DNA from: an uncultured Chromatiales bacterium | GTDB lineage: Bacteria > Pseudomonadota > Gammaproteobacteria > Poriferisulfidales > Poriferisulfidaceae | Assembly: GCA_964526195.1 (NCBI GenBank) | Contig: CAZGIH010000020.1 | Location: 12,803-76,802, forward strand | Direction: 5' to 3' | DNA: 64,000 nucleotides | In this document: piece by piece, positions 2-21,394 of the stretch | Position numbering within the stretch: position 1 is the stretch's first letter | How the letters are laid out: each line of letters starts with the position of its first letter | Translations under genes and position numbers: made by a program | Notes under the pieces: generated by a model | Databases searched by the model: none | What the model was told of the DNA's origin: nothing | Seen by the model: only the letters and a program-made list of their open reading frames with translations

Positions 2-1939
2 GGTATTGATCTGGGAACCACGAACTCCTGCGTCGCAGTGATGGAGGGTTCGGGTGCGCGCGTCATCGAAAACAGCGAAGGCGATCGGACCACGCCGTCG
101 ATCGTGGCGTTCACCGAGGACGGTGGCGAGGTGCTGGTTGGACAGACTGCCAAGCGTCAGGCGGTGACCAACCCGGAACACACGGTGTTCGCGGTCAAGC
201 GGCTGATTGGCCGGCGCTTCGACGAGGGCGAAGTCCAGAAGGACATCAAGCTCGTTCCGTTCTCCATCGTCAAGGCCGACAACGGCGATGCCTGGGTTGA
301 GGCACATGGAAAGAAGATGGCACCGCCGGAAATCTCCGCGCGGGTGCTCGGCAAGATGAAGCAGACGGCCGAGGAGTACTTGGGCGAGGAAGTGACCGAG
401 GCGGTCATCACCGTGCCGGCGTATTTCAACGATTCGCAGCGTCAGGCGACCAAGGACGCCGGGCGCATCGCCGGACTCGAGGTCCGGCGCATCATCAACG
501 AGCCGACTGCGGCGGCGTTGGCCTATGGCATGGACAAGAAGCACGGCGACACCAAGATCGCGGTATACGATCTCGGTGGCGGAACCTTCGACATCTCGAT
601 CATCGAGATTGCCGAGGTCGACGGCGAACACCAGTTCGAGGTGCTGGCAACCAATGGCAACACCTTCCTGGGTGGCGAAGATTTCGACCTGCGCCTGATC
701 GATTTCCTGTCGGACGGCTTCCAGAAAGAGTACGGGGTCGACCTGCACAATGATCCGATTGCCCTCCAGCGCCTGAAAGAGGCTGCCGAGAAGGCCAAGG
801 TGGAATTGTCCACTGCACAGCAGACCGAAGTGAACCTGCCGTACATCACGGCGGACTCCAGCGGGCCGAAGCACTTGAACGCGAAGATCACGCGTGCCAA
901 GTTCGAATCCCTGGTCGAAGACCTGGTCGAGGGCACCCTGGAACCGTGCCGGATCGCGATGAAGGATGCCGGAGTGTCGGCCGGAGATATTTCCGGAGTG
1001 ATCTTGGTCGGTGGCCAGACCCGGATGCCGAAGGTTCAGGAAGCGGTCGAGGGCCTGTTTGGCAAGGCGCCGCGCAAGGACGTCAACCCCGACGAGGCGG
1101 TGGCGATTGGTGCGGCTATTCAGGGTGGCGTGCTTGGCGGCGACGTCAAGGACGTCCTGTTGCTGGATGTGACCCCGCTGTCGCTTGGCATCGAAACCCT
1201 GGGTGGGGTGATGACCAAGCTGATCGAGAAGAACACCACCATTCCGACCACTCAGACCCAGGTATTCTCGACGGCGGCGGACAACCAGCCGGCGGTCACG
1301 GTGCATGTACTGCAAGGCGAGCGGGAGCGTGCCGATGCCAACAAGTCGCTGGGTCGTTTCGACCTGACCGACTTGCCGCCCGCTCCGCGCGGCGTGCCGC
1401 AGATCGAGGTGTCCTTCGACATCGACGCCAACGGAATTCTCAGCGTCTCGGCCAAGGACAAGGCTACCGGCAAGGAACAGTCGATCGTCATCAAGGCGTC
1501 CAGCGGACTGACGGACGATGAGATCGACCGGATGGTCAAGGATGCCGAAGCGCATGCCGAGGAAGACCGCAAGTTCCAGGAACTGGTGCAGGCGCGCAAT
1601 ACCGCGGATGCCTTGATCCATGCCACGACCAAGGCGATGGAGGACCTGGGCGACAAGGTTTCGGGTGAAGAGCGCGCGCAGGTGGAAAGTGCCGCAAACG
1701 ACCTGAAGGAAGCACTGAAGGGTGACGACTTGGCGGTCATCGAGGCGAAGACGAAGGCCCTGTCCGATGCTAGCGGTGACATTGCCCAACGTGCCTATCA
1801 GGAGGCGCAGCAGGAGGCAAGTGCCGGCGAGCAGGCTCCGCCCGACTCCGAAAAAAGCGATGATGGCGTAGTGGATGCCGACTTCGACGAAGTCGACGAG
1901 GCGGGCAAGTCCGGGTCGGGCAACGGCAAGTCTTCCTGA
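2..1939 (+). CDS. dnaK: Molecular chaperone DnaK (Hsp70), 5'-truncated by window edge
   Basis: The frame is open from the first bases and reads [14 protein letters not shown]...; Hsp70 signature stretches ([19 protein letters not shown]) and the acidic C-terminus are present; dnaJ follows. Confidence 0.97.
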
Positions 1940-1969
1940 TCCTGGAGGGGGCTCGATGCCGCATGCCCG

Positions 1970-3100
1970 ATGGCCAAACGCGACTACTATGAAGTACTAG
2001 GCGTCGACCGAAAGGTCAGCGAGGCGGACCTCAAGAAGGCGTATCGCCGGTTGGCCATGAAGCACCACCCGGACCGCAACAAGGACGACGCTGACGCCGA
2101 CCGCAAGTTCCGGGAGATCCAGGAAGCCTACGGCGTCCTGTCCGATTCCGAGAAACGTTCCCTGTACGACCGCTTCGGGCACGATGCGGTCGGGGCTTCG
2201 GGTGCATCCGGTGCCGCAGGGGCGGCCAGCGGGTTCGAAGATATATTCGGTGACATGTTCGGCGACATGTTCGGTCGGGCGAGCCGGGGCCGCACGGAAG
2301 TACGCGGCGCAGACCTGGCCTACCGGGCTGAGTTGGATCTGGAAGAAGCGGTATTCGGGGTAACCCGCGAGATCGATGTCGAGATGGCGATGCAGTGCGA
2401 AACCTGCGATGGCACCGGTTGCGCACCCGGCACCCAGCCGGAAACCTGTTCGACTTGCCAGGGCCGCGGCGAGGTGGTGGTCCAACAGGGCTTCTTCACC
2501 CTGCGCCAGACCTGCCCGAAATGCCATGGCGAGGGCCGCACCATTCGCGTGCCCTGCCACGATTGCCATGGTGCGGGACGCGTGCGCAAGACGCGCACGC
2601 TGCGAGTCAAGATCCCGGCGGGCGTGGATCAGGGAGACCGGGTTCGCCTGACCGGAGAAGGCGAGGCCGGCATGCGCGGTGGTGCGCCGGGGGATCTGTA
2701 CGTAGAGGTGAGGGTGCGCAAGCACCGCCTGTTCCGCCGCAAGGGGAACGACCTGCATTGCGATGTGCCGATTAGCTTTGCCATGGCGGCGTTGGGCGGG
2801 GCTGTCGAGATCCCGACGCTGGACGGCCACGTGAACCTGAAGATCCCTCCGGAGACGCAAACGGGCGTGTCGCTGCGCCTGCGCGGCAAGGGTGTTAGTT
2901 CGGTCCGCAACTCGTCTCCGGGCGACATGATCTGTACCATGGTCGTCGAGACCCCAGTCAGTCTGAATGCGGGACAGCGCAGGCTTCTCGAAGAATTGGA
3001 AGAGTCCCTGACCGGAAATGAGGTACACTCCCCCCGTGCCGATTCCTGGCTGAAGCGGGGGCGGCATTTCGTGGACAACCTGAAGTCTTGGTTGCACTAG
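1970..3100 (+). CDS. dnaJ: Co-chaperone DnaJ
   Basis: N-terminal J-domain (YYEVLGV...HPDRN), G/F-rich linker ([10 protein letters not shown]), four CxxCxG zinc-finger repeats; sits directly after dnaK. Confidence 0.97.
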
Positions 3101-3116
3101 AAAAAAGGATTTTCAA

Positions 3117-3932
3117 ATGGGAAAAGTTCGAGTAGGGATTGCTGGTGTTACCGGCCGAATGGGCAGCACCCTGGTTCGGGTGGCGCTGGAGACTCCCGGC
3201 ATTGCGCTGGGCGCGGCCAGCTCGCACAGCCAAGACGAGTTAGTGGTTGGGCGGGACGCCGGGCTGTTCTCGGGAGGGGAAGAGTCGGGTGTGGCGATTT
3301 CCGGGTCGCTCGAATACTGCCATGGAGATTTCGACGTTGCGATCGACTTCACGTGCCCCGAATACACGGTGGAACTGGCCCGGTTCTGTGTGGAACAGGA
3401 AAAGGGCATGGTGATCGGTACGACTGCGCACAGCAAAGAGCAGTTGGAAGCCGTTGCCGAGGCGGCGAAAAAAATCCCGATCGTGATGGCGCCGAACATG
3501 AGTATTGGCGTCAACCTGATGTTGAACCTGATCACCGAGGCCGCCAAGTCGCTTGGCGACGAGACGGATACGGACATCGTGGAATTGCATCATCGCAAGA
3601 AGCACGACGCCCCGTCCGGTACCGCGCTGGCTTTGGGCAAGGCGGTGGCGAAAGGAAGGAAACAGGCATTCCCGGACTGTGCTTCGTTCAGGGCCCTGTC
3701 GACGGGCGACGAAAGAGATGCGGACAAGATCCAATATCACATCATGCGGATGGCGAACGTTGTCGGCGAGCACCGGGTGGTTTTCGCCTGGAACAACGAA
3801 CGGTTGGAGTTAGTGCACCGGGCGGGCAGCCGGGAGATTTTCGCTGGCGGTGCCTTGCGCGCGGCGGCTTGGGTTTCTGGCCGGTCACCCGGGCTGTATT
3901 CGATGCAGGACGTACTCGCGATGTTAGACTAA
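3117..3932 (+). CDS. dapB: 4-hydroxy-tetrahydrodipicolinate reductase
   Basis: 271 aa; N-terminal Rossmann motif [11 protein letters not shown]; conserved dnaKJ-dapB neighbourhood. Confidence 0.92.
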
Positions 3933-3966
3933 CCCGCCACGGCTGCTAGCCGCCGGGACGTCATGC

Positions 3967-4053
3967 GGAGAGGTGGCAGAGTGGTCGAATGCGGCGGTCT
4001 TGAAAACCGTTGAACCGAAAGGTTCCGGGGGTTCGAATCCCTCCCTCTCCGCC
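3967..4053 (+). tRNA. tRNA-Ser (anticodon UGA)
   Basis: The acceptor stem GGAGAGG pairs with CCTCTCC, followed by discriminator G and CCA. The anticodon stem GCGGT pairs with ACCGT around the loop CTTGAAA (anticodon TGA). A long variable arm is characteristic of type II (Ser) tRNAs, and the T-loop is GTTCGAATC. Confidence 0.9.
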
Positions 4054-4078
4054 ACACGGACGTTGATGGACTACTCGC

Positions 4079-5638
4079 ATGGGGTTTTGGGAACTCGTCG
4101 TCGGCTTGTCGGAAAACCTGTTCTACGCATGGGGCTGGCCTTGGCTCGGCCTGCCAGGCGGAATCCTCCTTGTTCTCGGTCTGCTGCGGGCTCCGCGGGT
4201 GCTCGGCCTGCTGATGCTGATGCTGTCCGCCGCGACCGTGCTGGTGGTCTTGGCTCCGCACGTGACGGGGGCGGGCCGTCCAGACTGGCATGTCTTGCTG
4301 TTCGTCGGGGAATTCCTGCTTGGAGCAGCGGTGGCCGCCTTCGCGGCACGCGGGACGACCAACCTGCTTGAGCGTTGGCGCGGGCGCTGGATGCAGCGCA
4401 GCCCGCTGGCTCGCGATGCGCGGACCGATATCCGCACGGTCGGGGATTTGCTGCCGAAAGCTCGTGATGCCTATGATCCGCTGCCTCATTGCGAGTCGCT
4501 GGAGCAAATCTTCTTGGGCCTGGGTCCGGACGGCGATGCCGTTCATGTTGATCAAGCCTTATGGCGGAACTCCCATGTCGACATTGTCGGCATGACCGGC
4601 AGCGGCAAAGGGATTTTGGCCGGAGTACTGCTGACCCAAGCTGTGCGGCAGGGTGAGGCGGTGGTAGTGGTCGATCCCAAGGACGACGAATACGCACCGC
4701 GCGTGATGGCTCGTGCCGCCCGAGAGGCGGGCGTGCCGTTCTACCGCTTGGATCTCATGGACGAGACGGCGCAGTGGAATCCTCTTCGGGGCAAGACGGC
4801 CGACGAGATCGAAGAACTCCTGGTGGCGAGTCTGGGTTTGGGAGAGCGGGGCACCGAGGCGGATTTCTATCGCCTCAACGACCGCCGTGCCGCGCGGGAA
4901 TTCGCGCAACTGTACGACGATGAACCTTTGCCGATCCTGCTGGAGACGTTCCGCGGCCAGCCCGCAGCCCGCAAGGCGACGAAATTCATCGACGATATGG
5001 AAGAAATTGTCGCGACTCCTTCAGCGCGAGCCGAGGAAGGATTGGATATTGCCGGGGCGATTTCCGAAGGTGCGGTGATTTACGTGCGTGGTTCCGTGCG
5101 CCACTCTCGCATCCTCAAGCTGCAGAAGATGTTCGTGCTGTCGGTGATTCAGTACTGTGAACGGCGCGCTCGCGAGGAAGCCCGTCAGGTTTGCTTATTC
5201 TTGGATGAATTCCGCTATCTGGTCAGCGCACCCGTGCTGGAAGCGCTTGCTTCCATCCGCGACAAGCGAGCACACTTGGTTCTGGCGCATCAGACGGTGA
5301 ACGATTTGCGGAATGTCCCCGACGACCTAGATCCGGAGCAGGTGGTGTCCTCAGTGACTGAAAACTGTGGCCTGAAATTCTCCTACCGGGTCAACGATCC
5401 GGACACCGCGTTATGGTTGGCGCGCATGAGCGGAAATATCCTGGTCGACGACGAGGTGCGAAGCCTTGAGACCAATACGGTGCTCGCTGAACGGGAGCGA
5501 GATTTTCGCAGTTTGCGCCAGTCGGAACGCTATCTAGTGGATACTAATATGCTGCAATCCCTGCCGCCGCGTTGCGCGGTCAACTACGGCAACGGGCTCG
5601 CCCGATTTGTGTTTACGTCTCCGGTACCAGTTGAGTAG
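4079..5638 (+). CDS. Membrane-anchored P-loop ATPase resembling TraD/VirD4-type (type IV coupling protein-like) family; function unknown
   Basis: Two or three N-terminal hydrophobic helices; Walker A-like GMTGSGKG (the Ser/Thr after Lys is replaced by Gly); Walker B-like LFLDEF; LVLAHQTVNDL resembles the conserved Q-motif of TraG/TrwB coupling proteins. The start codon is uncertain. The gene lies 25 nt downstream of tRNA-Ser. Confidence 0.45.
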   Translation: MGFWELVVGLSENLFYAWGWPWLGLPGGILLVLGLLRAPRVLGLLMLMLSAATVLVVLAPHVTGAGRPDWHVLLFVGEFLLGAAVAAFAARGTTNLLERWRGRWMQRSPLARDARTDIRTVGDLLPKARDAYDPLPHCESLEQIFLGLGPDGDAVHVDQALWRNSHVDIVGMTGSGKGILAGVLLTQAVRQGEAVVVVDPKDDEYAPRVMARAAREAGVPFYRLDLMDETAQWNPLRGKTADEIEELLVASLGLGERGTEADFYRLNDRRAAREFAQLYDDEPLPILLETFRGQPAARKATKFIDDMEEIVATPSARAEEGLDIAGAISEGAVIYVRGSVRHSRILKLQKMFVLSVIQYCERRAREEARQVCLFLDEFRYLVSAPVLEALASIRDKRAHLVLAHQTVNDLRNVPDDLDPEQVVSSVTENCGLKFSYRVNDPDTALWLARMSGNILVDDEVRSLETNTVLAERERDFRSLRQSERYLVDTNMLQSLPPRCAVNYGNGLARFVFTSPVPVE

Positions 5639-19251: not shown

Positions 19252-20141
19252 CTCCACTTGTGCCTTGCGGCTGGTTGCTGCTGGACAAGCCGGTCGGACT
19301 GAGTTCGACCCGTGCCGTATCCCGAGTCAAGCGCCTCTTTCAGGCGAAGCGTGCCGGACATGCGGGCACTCTCGATCCATTGGCGAGCGGACTCCTCGCC
19401 ATCGCCCTGGGCCCGGCCACCCGCTGGTGCGCCTACCTGCTGGATGCCCCGAAATCCTACCGGTTCACAATCCGGCTGGGCCGAGAGACAGACAGCCATG
19501 ATGCGGAAAGCTTGGAGCAAGCGGCTCCGCCTCGTGCCGAAATCCCCTCGCTGGAGCGCGCTGAAATCGACGACCTGCTGTCCCGCTTTACCGGGGAAAT
19601 CCAACAGGTCCCGCCCATGTATTCCGCGCTCCACAGCGAAGGGCGACGCCTGTACGAACTGGCTCGCGAGGGCAAGGTGGTTGATCGGCCTCCCCGCGAA
19701 GTAAGGATCGACCGGCTGGAGCTGCTTGCGGATCGCCGGGAGGAGTGGGAACTTGAGGTTTCCTGCGGCAAGGGCACGTATGTGCGCTCGCTGGGGCACG
19801 ATATCGGCCAGGCGTTGGGTTGCGGAGCATACGTGAGCCAGTTGCGGCGCACGGAGCTCGGGGTTTTTGACGAAGCCCAGGCAGTCAGCCTGGAACAGGT
19901 CGAGGCCGATTCCGAGGAAGCACGCTTGGCGCGATTGCTTCCCCCAGATGCAGTGCTACCCGAGTGGCCGGTTCATTCCTGCACGGCGAGTGAGGAGGCC
20001 GCGTTGCGCAAAGGGCAGCAGATCGTTCACGAGGGATCTGCGGGATTTTGGAAATTACAGGATGCGCAGGGCCAGTTTTTCGGTGTGGCCGAGGTGCTGG
20101 AGACGGGACGGCTCCAACCGCGGCGCCTGATGGATAGATAA
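19248..20141 (+). CDS. truB: tRNA pseudouridine(55) synthase
   Basis: 297 aa; GHAGTLDPLASG catalytic-Asp motif; C-terminal PUA domain; conserved position after rbfA. Confidence 0.95.
   Translation: MTPLVPCGWLLLDKPVGLSSTRAVSRVKRLFQAKRAGHAGTLDPLASGLLAIALGPATRWCAYLLDAPKSYRFTIRLGRETDSHDAESLEQAAPPRAEIPSLERAEIDDLLSRFTGEIQQVPPMYSALHSEGRRLYELAREGKVVDRPPREVRIDRLELLADRREEWELEVSCGKGTYVRSLGHDIGQALGCGAYVSQLRRTELGVFDEAQAVSLEQVEADSEEARLARLLPPDAVLPEWPVHSCTASEEAALRKGQQIVHEGSAGFWKLQDAQGQFFGVAEVLETGRLQPRRLMDR
20124..20133. repeat. Left copy of a 10-bp direct repeat CGCCTGATGG (last codons of truB) flanking the low-GC islet
   Basis: An exact 10-mer also occurs at 21338-21347; the two copies bracket about 1.2 kb of markedly AT-rich DNA. 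Confidence 0.5.
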
Positions 20142-20250
20142 CTTGATAGAGATTGTGGTGCCCTCTAATCCTACAGACATCGAATGGTTGCAGTAACGGA
20201 TAAAATTTTTTTATTTTCAATCATTTATAGAAACGAATCGTCTAAACATC

Positions 20251-20279
20251 AAAACACAGAGAAACTTAGGACTATAATG
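20251..20279 (+). promoter_or_regulatory. Candidate sigma70-like promoter for the islet gene
   Basis: Consensus -10 TATAAT at 20274-20279; weak -35 AAAACA at 17-nt spacing; AT-rich upstream region. Confidence 0.3.
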
Positions 20280-20329
20280 ACGACTCAAATGAAATTACAG
20301 ATTATTTGGATTTTTTAGGAGAAAAAATA

Positions 20330-20767
20330 ATGGGCGTACAGGCGATTGATGTGGCCGCCTACATTCTTAAAGAGCTTGGCACAATGCCCGCCATGAAGCT
20401 CCATAAGCTTGTCTATTATTCTCAAGCATGGTCTCTTGTGTGGGACGACAAGCCCATTTTCCATGACCGGATTGAGGCATGGGCAAATGGCCCAGTCATC
20501 CGGAATTTGTATAACAAACACAAAGGAAGGTTTCGTGTGGGCAGCATTAAGGGCGCCGAACGGACATTGCTGAACTCCGAACAGTGTGAAACCATAGATG
20601 CTGTTCTTGATTACTATGGTGACAAGTCTTCGCAATGGCTCAGTGATTTGACCCACATGGAGGCTCCGTGGCAAGAAGCACGAGCAAAAGCGGGTCTTGC
20701 CAGTGGACAACGCGGAAACGCATGTATCACTCATGCATCTATGGCTGAATACTACTCTGGTTTGTAA
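20330..20767 (+). CDS. Panacea-domain (DUF4065 / GepA-SocA-like) protein, antitoxin-type domain
   Basis: 145 aa from the ATG with AGGAGA 8 nt upstream; KLHKLVYYSQAWSLVWDDKPIFHDRIEAWANGPVIRNLYNKHK matches the DUF4065 core. About 40% GC against about 65% in the flanks. Ends at TAA 20765-20767. Confidence 0.7.
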   Translation: MGVQAIDVAAYILKELGTMPAMKLHKLVYYSQAWSLVWDDKPIFHDRIEAWANGPVIRNLYNKHKGRFRVGSIKGAERTLLNSEQCETIDAVLDYYGDKSSQWLSDLTHMEAPWQEARAKAGLASGQRGNACITHASMAEYYSGL

Positions 20768-20773
20768 AGCAAC

Positions 20774-21217
20774 TTGGGCAGGAAGCCAGCCAGAAAATTA
20801 TCCAAATCATCCGAACTCCCCCGTCCCACTAAAAAAGCAAAGAGTGGCGGGGATTCGGGCAAAGACGGTCATTTGTCCTGGAGGTTCAGTGCGTGTGACA
20901 AGAACGGTCCTTGGCCTTGGTTGGGGCTATCAGATCCCGAAACACATCAACGTGTAATAGAGAAATTATCAGGTTTTGAACAACTGAACCCAGAGCAAAT
21001 TAAAAAAACAGGGAGTCATCCTATAGAGGTTGGTAAACTTGTAAAAGACGCTAGAGACCGCCTTCAGCAACTTCATAAAGATGATGTGGATGAACTTTAT
21101 TCGTTCCGCATTTCTAGCAGAGAAAGAGTTTGGTGCATAAGGAAACAGAATGTTATGGAAGTCTTGTGGTGGGATCCAGAACACCATGTCTATCCAACAC
21201 AGCCTAGTAATACCTAA
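20774..21217 (+). CDS. 147-codon ORF in the same frame as the Panacea gene, separated from it by one TAA and two codons; no ATG or RBS; possible C-terminal portion or readthrough product
   Basis: A long open frame in AT-rich DNA. The only in-frame starts are TTG. The C-terminal stretch DELYSFRISSRERVWCIRKQNVMEVLWWDPEHHVY loosely resembles the final strands of RelE/ParE-fold toxins. Confidence 0.4.
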   Translation: MGRKPARKLSKSSELPRPTKKAKSGGDSGKDGHLSWRFSACDKNGPWPWLGLSDPETHQRVIEKLSGFEQLNPEQIKKTGSHPIEVGKLVKDARDRLQQLHKDDVDELYSFRISSRERVWCIRKQNVMEVLWWDPEHHVYPTQPSNT

Positions 21218-21337
21218 ACTACTTTTCCGACTTCAAAAAACTAGAATCATTCAGATGGCTTGGCTGGAAACCGCCTTTATGGGCATTTGCCGCTCGGCAT
21301 GCTCGGTCGCACTTGGCAAGTTATCCATACAATCCCT

Positions 21338-21347
21338 CGCCTGATGG
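21338..21347. repeat. Right copy of the 10-bp direct repeat CGCCTGATGG
   Basis: Exact match to 20124-20133; lies where high GC resumes, upstream of sppA. Confidence 0.5.
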
Positions 21348-21394
21348 CCGACCCCGAGAGTCCAGTACAATCGGCAATCTAGAGGAAAGCCGCC

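Follow-up and report, generated by a model that had tools for sequence, protein, structure and literature searches.

Antitoxins with a Panacea domain (PanA) have been described by Kurata et al. 2022 (PMC8832971), who assigned their partner toxins (PanT) to 88 clusters and found the antitoxin gene more commonly in first position. The founding Panacea protein is SocA, from the type VI toxin-antitoxin (TA) system SocAB of Caulobacter; SocA is a proteolytic adaptor, whereas direct binding to the toxin has been described for the PanAs studied to date (PMC8832971). Cluster T1 occupies at least 217 rows of Dataset S1 (PMC8832971), among them Phaeospirillum molischianum DSM 120, gamma proteobacterium L18, Desulfovibrio alcoholivorans DSM 5433, and Legionella gresilensis. 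The T1 members that were tested, from E. coli MOD1 and Salmonella phage vB_SemP_Emek (Emek), are given as predicted 'mRNase' and 'not toxic' (PMC8832971). In this work we analysed a stretch of 64,000 nucleotides (nt) of contig CAZGIH010000020.1, from an uncultured Chromatiales bacterium (the window), and within it two adjacent genes, panA and panT, which share one reading frame. The locus is a new member of this known, predicted TA family (PanAT T1), and it very probably constitutes a bicistronic type II TA operon on a small mobile cassette, in which panA has its own Shine-Dalgarno (SD) sequence and ATG and panT is a separate gene. What had been suspected to be a pseudogene or a recoding event would in this manner give way to a standard, intact TA operon.

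The first gene, panA, extends from 20330 to 20767 on the plus strand and encodes a stand-alone Panacea (DUF4065/SocA-like) antitoxin of 145 amino acids (aa) that ends in AEYYSGL before the TAA; the product called in the near-identical GenBank copy is likewise of 145 aa. The match of PanA to Pfam PF13274 (residues 24-115, 68.5 bits with a cut-off of 25.7, E = 1.2e-18) lies above the Pfam gathering threshold for the Panacea domain. An SD motif, AGGAG, is located at 20318-20322 on the same strand, 7 nt before the ATG, with an anti-SD duplex energy of -7.3 kcal/mol. An earlier note made on this DNA had taken the Panacea open reading frame (ORF) from position 20306, which is a mechanical TTG; the gene start is instead the ATG at 20330, behind AGGAG. 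Although PanA and SocA have the SocA/Panacea domain in common, PanA reached 37.7 bits with the NCBIfam model SocA_antitoxin, far under its equivalog cut-off of 190, and PanT is unrelated to SocB.

The second gene, panT (20774-21217, plus strand), has 147 codons and a TTG start to which the starts of its homologues align. Among the related loci collected here, which carry L numbers, four corresponded to genomes listed under T1, namely P. molischianum (L038), gamma proteobacterium L18 (L029), D. alcoholivorans (L055), and L. gresilensis (L062), and they matched the window PanT in tblastn with E values from 1e-27 to 1e-37. For three of these loci the recorded gaps between the two genes, 7, -1, and 4 nt, were identical to the ones computed here. 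For L038 the record says 93 nt versus 3 nt in our calculation (GTG 3 nt past the stop), because the annotated start is late. Emek orf161 (L088, 15152-15637) was also recognized by the hidden Markov model of the PanT family (E = 5e-14). Judged by sequence, the window PanT is homologous to the T1 members and falls in cluster T1. The locus resembles the described T1 pairs in having the Panacea gene first, a partner of about 145 aa annotated as 'hypothetical protein', and gaps of a few nt between them; it differs in that its clade comes mostly from metagenome-assembled genomes (MAGs) of sponge-symbiont type, has TTG starts, and keeps all the invariant Arg, His, and Asp residues. Six T1 accessions were looked for in the available part of the NetFlax supplements (PMC10440598) and none of them was found there.

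The junction between the two genes reads ...GGT TTG TAA AGC AAC TTG GGC AGG..., with the panA and panT ORFs in phase, so that the description given in the earlier note, two ORFs in one frame with a single TAA between them, was confirmed by reading the sequence. The TAA of panA is located at 20765-20767 (plus strand) and is followed by an intercistronic spacer of 6 nt, AGCAAC (20768-20773, plus strand), without SD; the sequence of the spacer is variable across the family, and its length is the modal panA-panT spacing (17 of 82 loci). The distal frame goes from the TTG at 20774-20776 to the TAA at 21215-21217. It had been said to stay open for 147 codons in stop-prone DNA, and this held: in DNA of the island composition (44-45% GC) a frame would stay open over this length with P of about 1e-4, and when the 447-nt segment was shuffled 20,000 times only 4 of the shuffled sequences remained open. 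The open frame of panT is not a product of chance. The first in-frame ATG does not appear before codon 128, and no SD was found ahead of the TTG, where the anti-SD duplex, at -2.2 kcal/mol, was no stronger than at random positions (mean -2.8). The earlier note was right that the distal ORF has neither an ATG near its beginning nor a ribosome binding site. To speak of no start would be too strong, as TTG is a normal and legitimate, though weaker, bacterial start codon.

PanT homologues numbered 6 in a first search and 263 in a profile search, and an exhaustive profile search over 1.84 billion cluster representatives gave 2,116 at E <= 0.001 and 1,294 at E <= 1e-10. Nearly all the relatives had 107-190 aa (93-190 aa among those listed), and all were annotated as 'hypothetical protein'. 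The sole long exception was a call of 642 aa (P0270) with the PanT domain at its C-terminus; Pfam detected no domains in the longer family members, P0270 included, and hence no Panacea. For the analysis of gene order 86 loci were fetched, 6 via exact protein look-ups and 80 from among 454 detected across the GTDB species representatives, which together with the window make 87. Every one of the 87 had a Panacea ORF immediately upstream of panT in the same orientation. This comparison of homologous loci, which the earlier note had proposed as a check, consistently showed a second gene that is separate from the first and has a proper start of its own.

The phasing of two ORFs around one stop codon could be explained by an ancestral PanA-effector fusion of about 295 aa that was split by a nonsense mutation, or by a TAA that is a sequencing or assembly error, and both had been offered in the earlier note. 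We give this explanation a probability close to nil. Fused panA-panT genes were found in 0 of the 87 loci, and none of the approximately 270 family members listed had a length of 250-350 aa. The frame of panT relative to panA was 0, +1, and +2 in 32, 24, and 31 loci, respectively, a random distribution (binomial P = 0.28 versus one third) that must be taken as descriptive and not as a strict test, the loci being phylogenetically related. In most homologues the panA stop sits 3' of a conserved C-terminal motif, A-[ED]-Y-Y-x-x-L. The independent MAGs L006 (GCA_026707945.1) and L007 carry the cassette at about 98% identity and have an identical TAA-AGCAAC-TTG junction, and therefore the TAA is not a sequencing error; L008 has a TAA as well, and TGA or TAG occupies the homologous position elsewhere. 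The ratio of non-synonymous to synonymous substitution rates (Ka/Ks) of panA against its relatives was 0-0.07 (0.06-0.07 versus L008 and L010), and that of panT was 0.03-0.17 overall (0.16-0.17 versus the same two loci), with synonymous to non-synonymous differences in panT of 8:1 versus L006 and 7:2 versus L007. Each gene is under purifying selection as a separate unit, which also argues against a split fusion. A programmed readthrough of the TAA, yielding a PanA-PanT fusion besides, or in place of, the independent PanT, would be consistent with the clade that has the 6-nt spacer and the TTG (the window, L006-L008, L011-L014, L019, L021, and L025), which is in frame throughout. Within this clade, however, all three stop codons occur (TAA, TGA, and TAG) and the spacer varies in sequence, and the in-frame arrangement is kept in only the 32 loci of the 87 mentioned above. 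The sister loci L010 (83.6% nucleotide identity over the cassette; TGA + 8 nt + TTG), L015 (2-nt gap), and L017 (8-nt gap) retain the TTG and the downstream frame out of phase with panA, and because of this a product dependent on fusion or readthrough is impossible in them. Folding of the junction RNA compared with shuffles detected no stable structure (z = +0.62), and a search of Rfam at the junction gave no match. TAA is, moreover, the strongest bacterial terminator. Taken together, we regard readthrough as very improbable.

The geometry of the other loci can be described in the same terms. L006, L007, and L008 all have a stop, 6 nt, and TTG, and L005 has TGA + 6 nt + ATG in frame, which is the geometry of the window with a canonical start; among the out-of-frame loci, the genes overlap in L001 (TGATG) and are separated by 8 nt in L003 and L004. 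That the two genes share a frame follows from the chance length of the spacer between them, 6 nt. Of the remaining ideas in the earlier note, the coincidence of two genes in one frame is the one that the distribution of frames bears out, and where it had coupled readthrough with unusual initiation, only the second survived, in the form of an SD-less TTG 6 nt after the stop.

The homologue N-termini, M-[AG]-[KR]-K..., align with L(TTG)-G-R-K of the window, their starts being ATG, GTG, or TTG, and the homologues with an unambiguous ATG begin at the position of TTG 20774. We predict that panT starts at this TTG, 6 nt past the panA stop. The protein would then have an N-terminal tail (residues 1-33; 20774-20872, plus strand), basic (10 K/R, 3 D/E) and predicted to be disordered, with a predicted local distance difference test score (pLDDT) of 50-55 over residues 1-30, followed by a core with a RelE/YoeB-like fold in the AlphaFold2 model (residues 34-147; 20873-21214, plus strand). 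In the family the residues W36, R37, D42, G45, E69, H82, A93, L97, D104, W132, and H137 are invariant, and R112 and R118 are near-invariant. An alternative is that panT is real but starts downstream, at TTG 20873 (codon 34) or TTG 20921. The GenBank annotation of the L006 copy (MCY4128054.1; L006 5756-6014) begins at the internal TTG equivalent to 20921, and evolution is faster over the first 33 codons than in the remainder of the gene, Ka/Ks being 0.3-0.9 there (up to 0.93 versus L008). Nevertheless, the frame, length, and basic character of the tail are kept in the relatives, K8, P16, and K20 are near-invariant in 88 sequences, and a protein begun at 20921 would be missing four invariant residues, W36, R37, D42, and G45, as well as the first beta-strand. 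As W36 and R37 lie 5' of any later start, we judge a downstream start to be quite improbable, and the start of MCY4128054.1, which loses W36, R37, D42, and G45, to be almost certainly too short.

The opposite error was seen in Emek. YP_006560566.1 was called from a TTG that precedes the panA stop by 62 nt and is thereby 22 residues longer, whereas RefSeq WP_032219545.1 (L128, 755-1174), annotated by the Prokaryotic Genome Annotation Pipeline (PGAP) on E. coli prophage DNA identical to Emek, starts at an ATG 4 nt past the panA stop, just where the family profile alignment begins. The over-extended form is the accession given as tested and 'not toxic' in PMC8832971, and we can only speculate that the extended start affected the published result. 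PanT starts are often mis-annotated, being both shortened and over-extended, in a family that comprises at least 2,116 cluster representatives and 454 GTDB species. As a separate observation, panT was interrupted by a frameshift or an internal stop beside an intact panA in L009 (~3992-4446), L030 (~1586-2031), and L032 (3994-4435); either the toxin gene is decaying in these three copies or the assemblies are at fault.

The start of panT was assigned in each locus as the in-frame start nearest to the N-terminus of the profile, which was possible in 82 loci; these calls are heuristic and many of the loci are interrelated, so the counts that follow are not independent. The start codon was ATG in 40, GTG in 23, and TTG in 19 loci, and, counted from the last base of the panA stop, 74 of the 82 starts fell within -20 to +17 nt, most often at +6. 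The mean SD duplex energy for panT was -2.2 kcal/mol, and 9% of the loci reached -6 or stronger, a share like that of random positions; for panA the mean was -7.8 kcal/mol and the share 77%. An SD-less and often non-ATG start of panT is a family-wide trait. It is known that translational coupling weakens with the distance from stop to start (PMC8708949). Taking into account that the SD-less start lies inside the footprint of a ribosome terminating on panA, panT is most likely translated by termination-reinitiation, that is, by translational coupling. In the mechanism that we propose, the ribosome would end on the panA TAA and reinitiate at the panT TTG 6 nt further on, and the weak TTG would keep the toxin output under that of the antitoxin. 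The arrangement is similar to axe-txe and yefM-yoeB, in which the toxin cistron begins a few nt from the antitoxin stop and the coupling depends on the distance (PMC8708949). By comparison with these systems the T1 start is more extreme, as it is SD-less and is GTG or TTG in 42 of the 82 loci; the coupling here is presumed.

The fold prediction of the distal 147 residues, which the earlier note had also proposed, gave a basic disordered tail and a RelE/YoeB-like fold. The AlphaFold2 model, built from 88 sequences (pLDDT 82, predicted template modelling score 0.69), shows the disordered tail 1-33 and then a compact alpha/beta core of RelE type with an extra strand-helix insert (E82-85, H91-99). 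Its best fold matches were the ribosome-dependent RNases RelE, YoeB, YafQ, and HigB, and ParE ranked lower. Foldseek against the viral structures of BFVD gave no match at E <= 0.001. In sequence searches, the YoeB_toxin model of Pfam matched 1 of 50 relatives, weakly (E = 0.006), and the family profile found nothing significant among the PDB sequences, its best match being a designed repeat protein (E = 0.068). On this model PanT would belong to the RelE/ParE superfamily at the level of the fold only. It differs from RelE, YoeB, YafQ, and HigB in the additional 33-residue basic tail and the strand-helix insert, in having no detectable membership in their sequence families, and in its antitoxin, which is Panacea and not RelB, YefM, DinJ, or HigA. 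Two weak, sub-threshold similarities were also observed for residues 95-142 of PanT. One is with NCBIfam NF046006 ('MAG6450 family'), which was matched by 38 of 50 family members, with a best E of 2.4e-8 and always under the cut-off; the other is with the C-terminal end of PADLOC NsnC (E = 0.001).

RNase active sites typically contain Arg, His, and acidic side chains, and R37, E69, H82, R112, R118, D134, and H137 of PanT seem to resemble the active site of a nuclease. PanT would act as a translation-dependent mRNA endonuclease, kept inactive in complex with PanA, and we consider this activity somewhat probable. It is also conceivable, although on balance unlikely, that there are two genes as described and that PanT is a ParE-like gyrase poison or a non-toxic partner with a role other than growth arrest. 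No sequence model of RelE, YoeB, or HigB matches PanT, and the two T1 members tested in E. coli were not toxic (PMC8832971), both of which would fit with this explanation. The preference of the fold for RelE, YoeB, YafQ, and HigB over ParE and the invariant or near-invariant residues named above speak for an mRNase instead. To our knowledge ParE toxins have no such conserved catalytic set, unlike PanT with its nuclease-typical Arg and His. Moreover, the Emek protein that was tested was cloned from the over-extended annotation and lacks D42, R118, and H137, otherwise invariant or near-invariant; these residues are missing from the whole branch of the phage and the E. coli prophages, which may be a catalytically different or inactive subgroup.

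Several points weigh against the interpretation of the locus as a TA operon with a coupled mRNase toxin. The toxicity of cluster T1 is unproven, with the two negative results already mentioned; Pfam has no family for the window PanT; and hhalign of the family alignment with E. coli YoeB produced no alignment. The fold is shared with the ParE gyrase poisons. Both the translation of panT and its start at the window locus are predictions, made with the heuristic calls and interrelated loci indicated above, and it is from geometry alone that we infer the coupling. We likewise infer the RNase activity of PanT, its toxicity, and its neutralization by PanA. A wider proposal can be made in a tentative way, and we hold it with more doubt than conviction: T1 panT would be open only to ribosomes coming straight from termination on panA, the SD-less start, GTG or TTG in about half of the loci, providing a built-in control of the toxin to antitoxin ratio; the window subfamily, with its intact Arg/His set and basic tail, would be an active ribosome-associated mRNase; and the 'not toxic' results of T1 would reflect divergent active sites and mis-annotated N-termini and not an inert family. 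The RelE-like fold model and the set of invariant residues offer targets for mutagenesis in what is probably the most abundant PanT cluster, with a toxicity that is still putative.

The two genes are contained in a cassette of about 1.1 kb (~20151-21235) with about 45% GC, which sits in DNA of about 62% GC between truB and an sppA-like gene. The loci L006, L008, L009, and L010 share with the window only the cassette stretch, with 84-98% identity and in unrelated contexts, and L007 is syntenic with the window throughout (94%). In L006 (JAPOVV010000027.1) the cassette, 98% identical, adjoins a transposase of the IS1595 family, an EcoRI-like methylase, and a GmrSD/HNH gene (1458-4469); these surroundings look like a defence or mobile island, unlike the truB-sppA site of the window. 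From these comparisons the panAT cassette is a mobile unit of 1.1 kb common to symbiont-type MAGs. No tRNA was found near the cassette, and a consensus scan for promoters and terminators called none on the plus strand at the cassette. A tblastn search of PanT gave one weak match each in the plasmids of PLSDB and the phages of INPHARED, so that the window subfamily is not notably plasmid- or phage-borne in these collections. The Emek panAT region was matched in 82 of 5,426 complete E. coli genomes (48 covering >=80%), nearly all of them chromosomal.

Some minor observations concern the borders of the cassette and its distribution. A perfect TATAAT is located at 20273-20278, 52 nt 5' of the panA ATG and within a block conserved with L006, but it lacks a convincing -35. 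An exact direct repeat of 10 nt, CGCCTGATGG, flanks the cassette at 20124-20133 and 21338-21347. Its left copy makes up the final codons of truB, which read ...R R L M D R and a stop, and from the right copy the same frame is open (R L M A D P E S P V Q S A I) to the TAG at 21380-21382, 12 nt before the ATG of the sppA-like gene, which suggests that truB received the cassette at its 3' end and had its terminal codons replaced by it. The repeat is only a lead, because about one repeat of 10 nt is expected by chance in 1.4 kb. A search for the empty site or a related junction in metagenome contigs with the 21-mer CGCCTGATGGCCGACCCCGAG returned 39 matches, all of them chance matches of 22 nt. Many of the closest relatives (L007-L025 and others) are MAGs named Ca. 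Porisulfidus, Ca. Foliamicus, Ca. Poribacteria, Arenicellales, Binatia, and Nitrospinota, which we take to be lineages of sponge-symbiont type, and it is among the MAGs of these same names that the TTG-start variants are concentrated.
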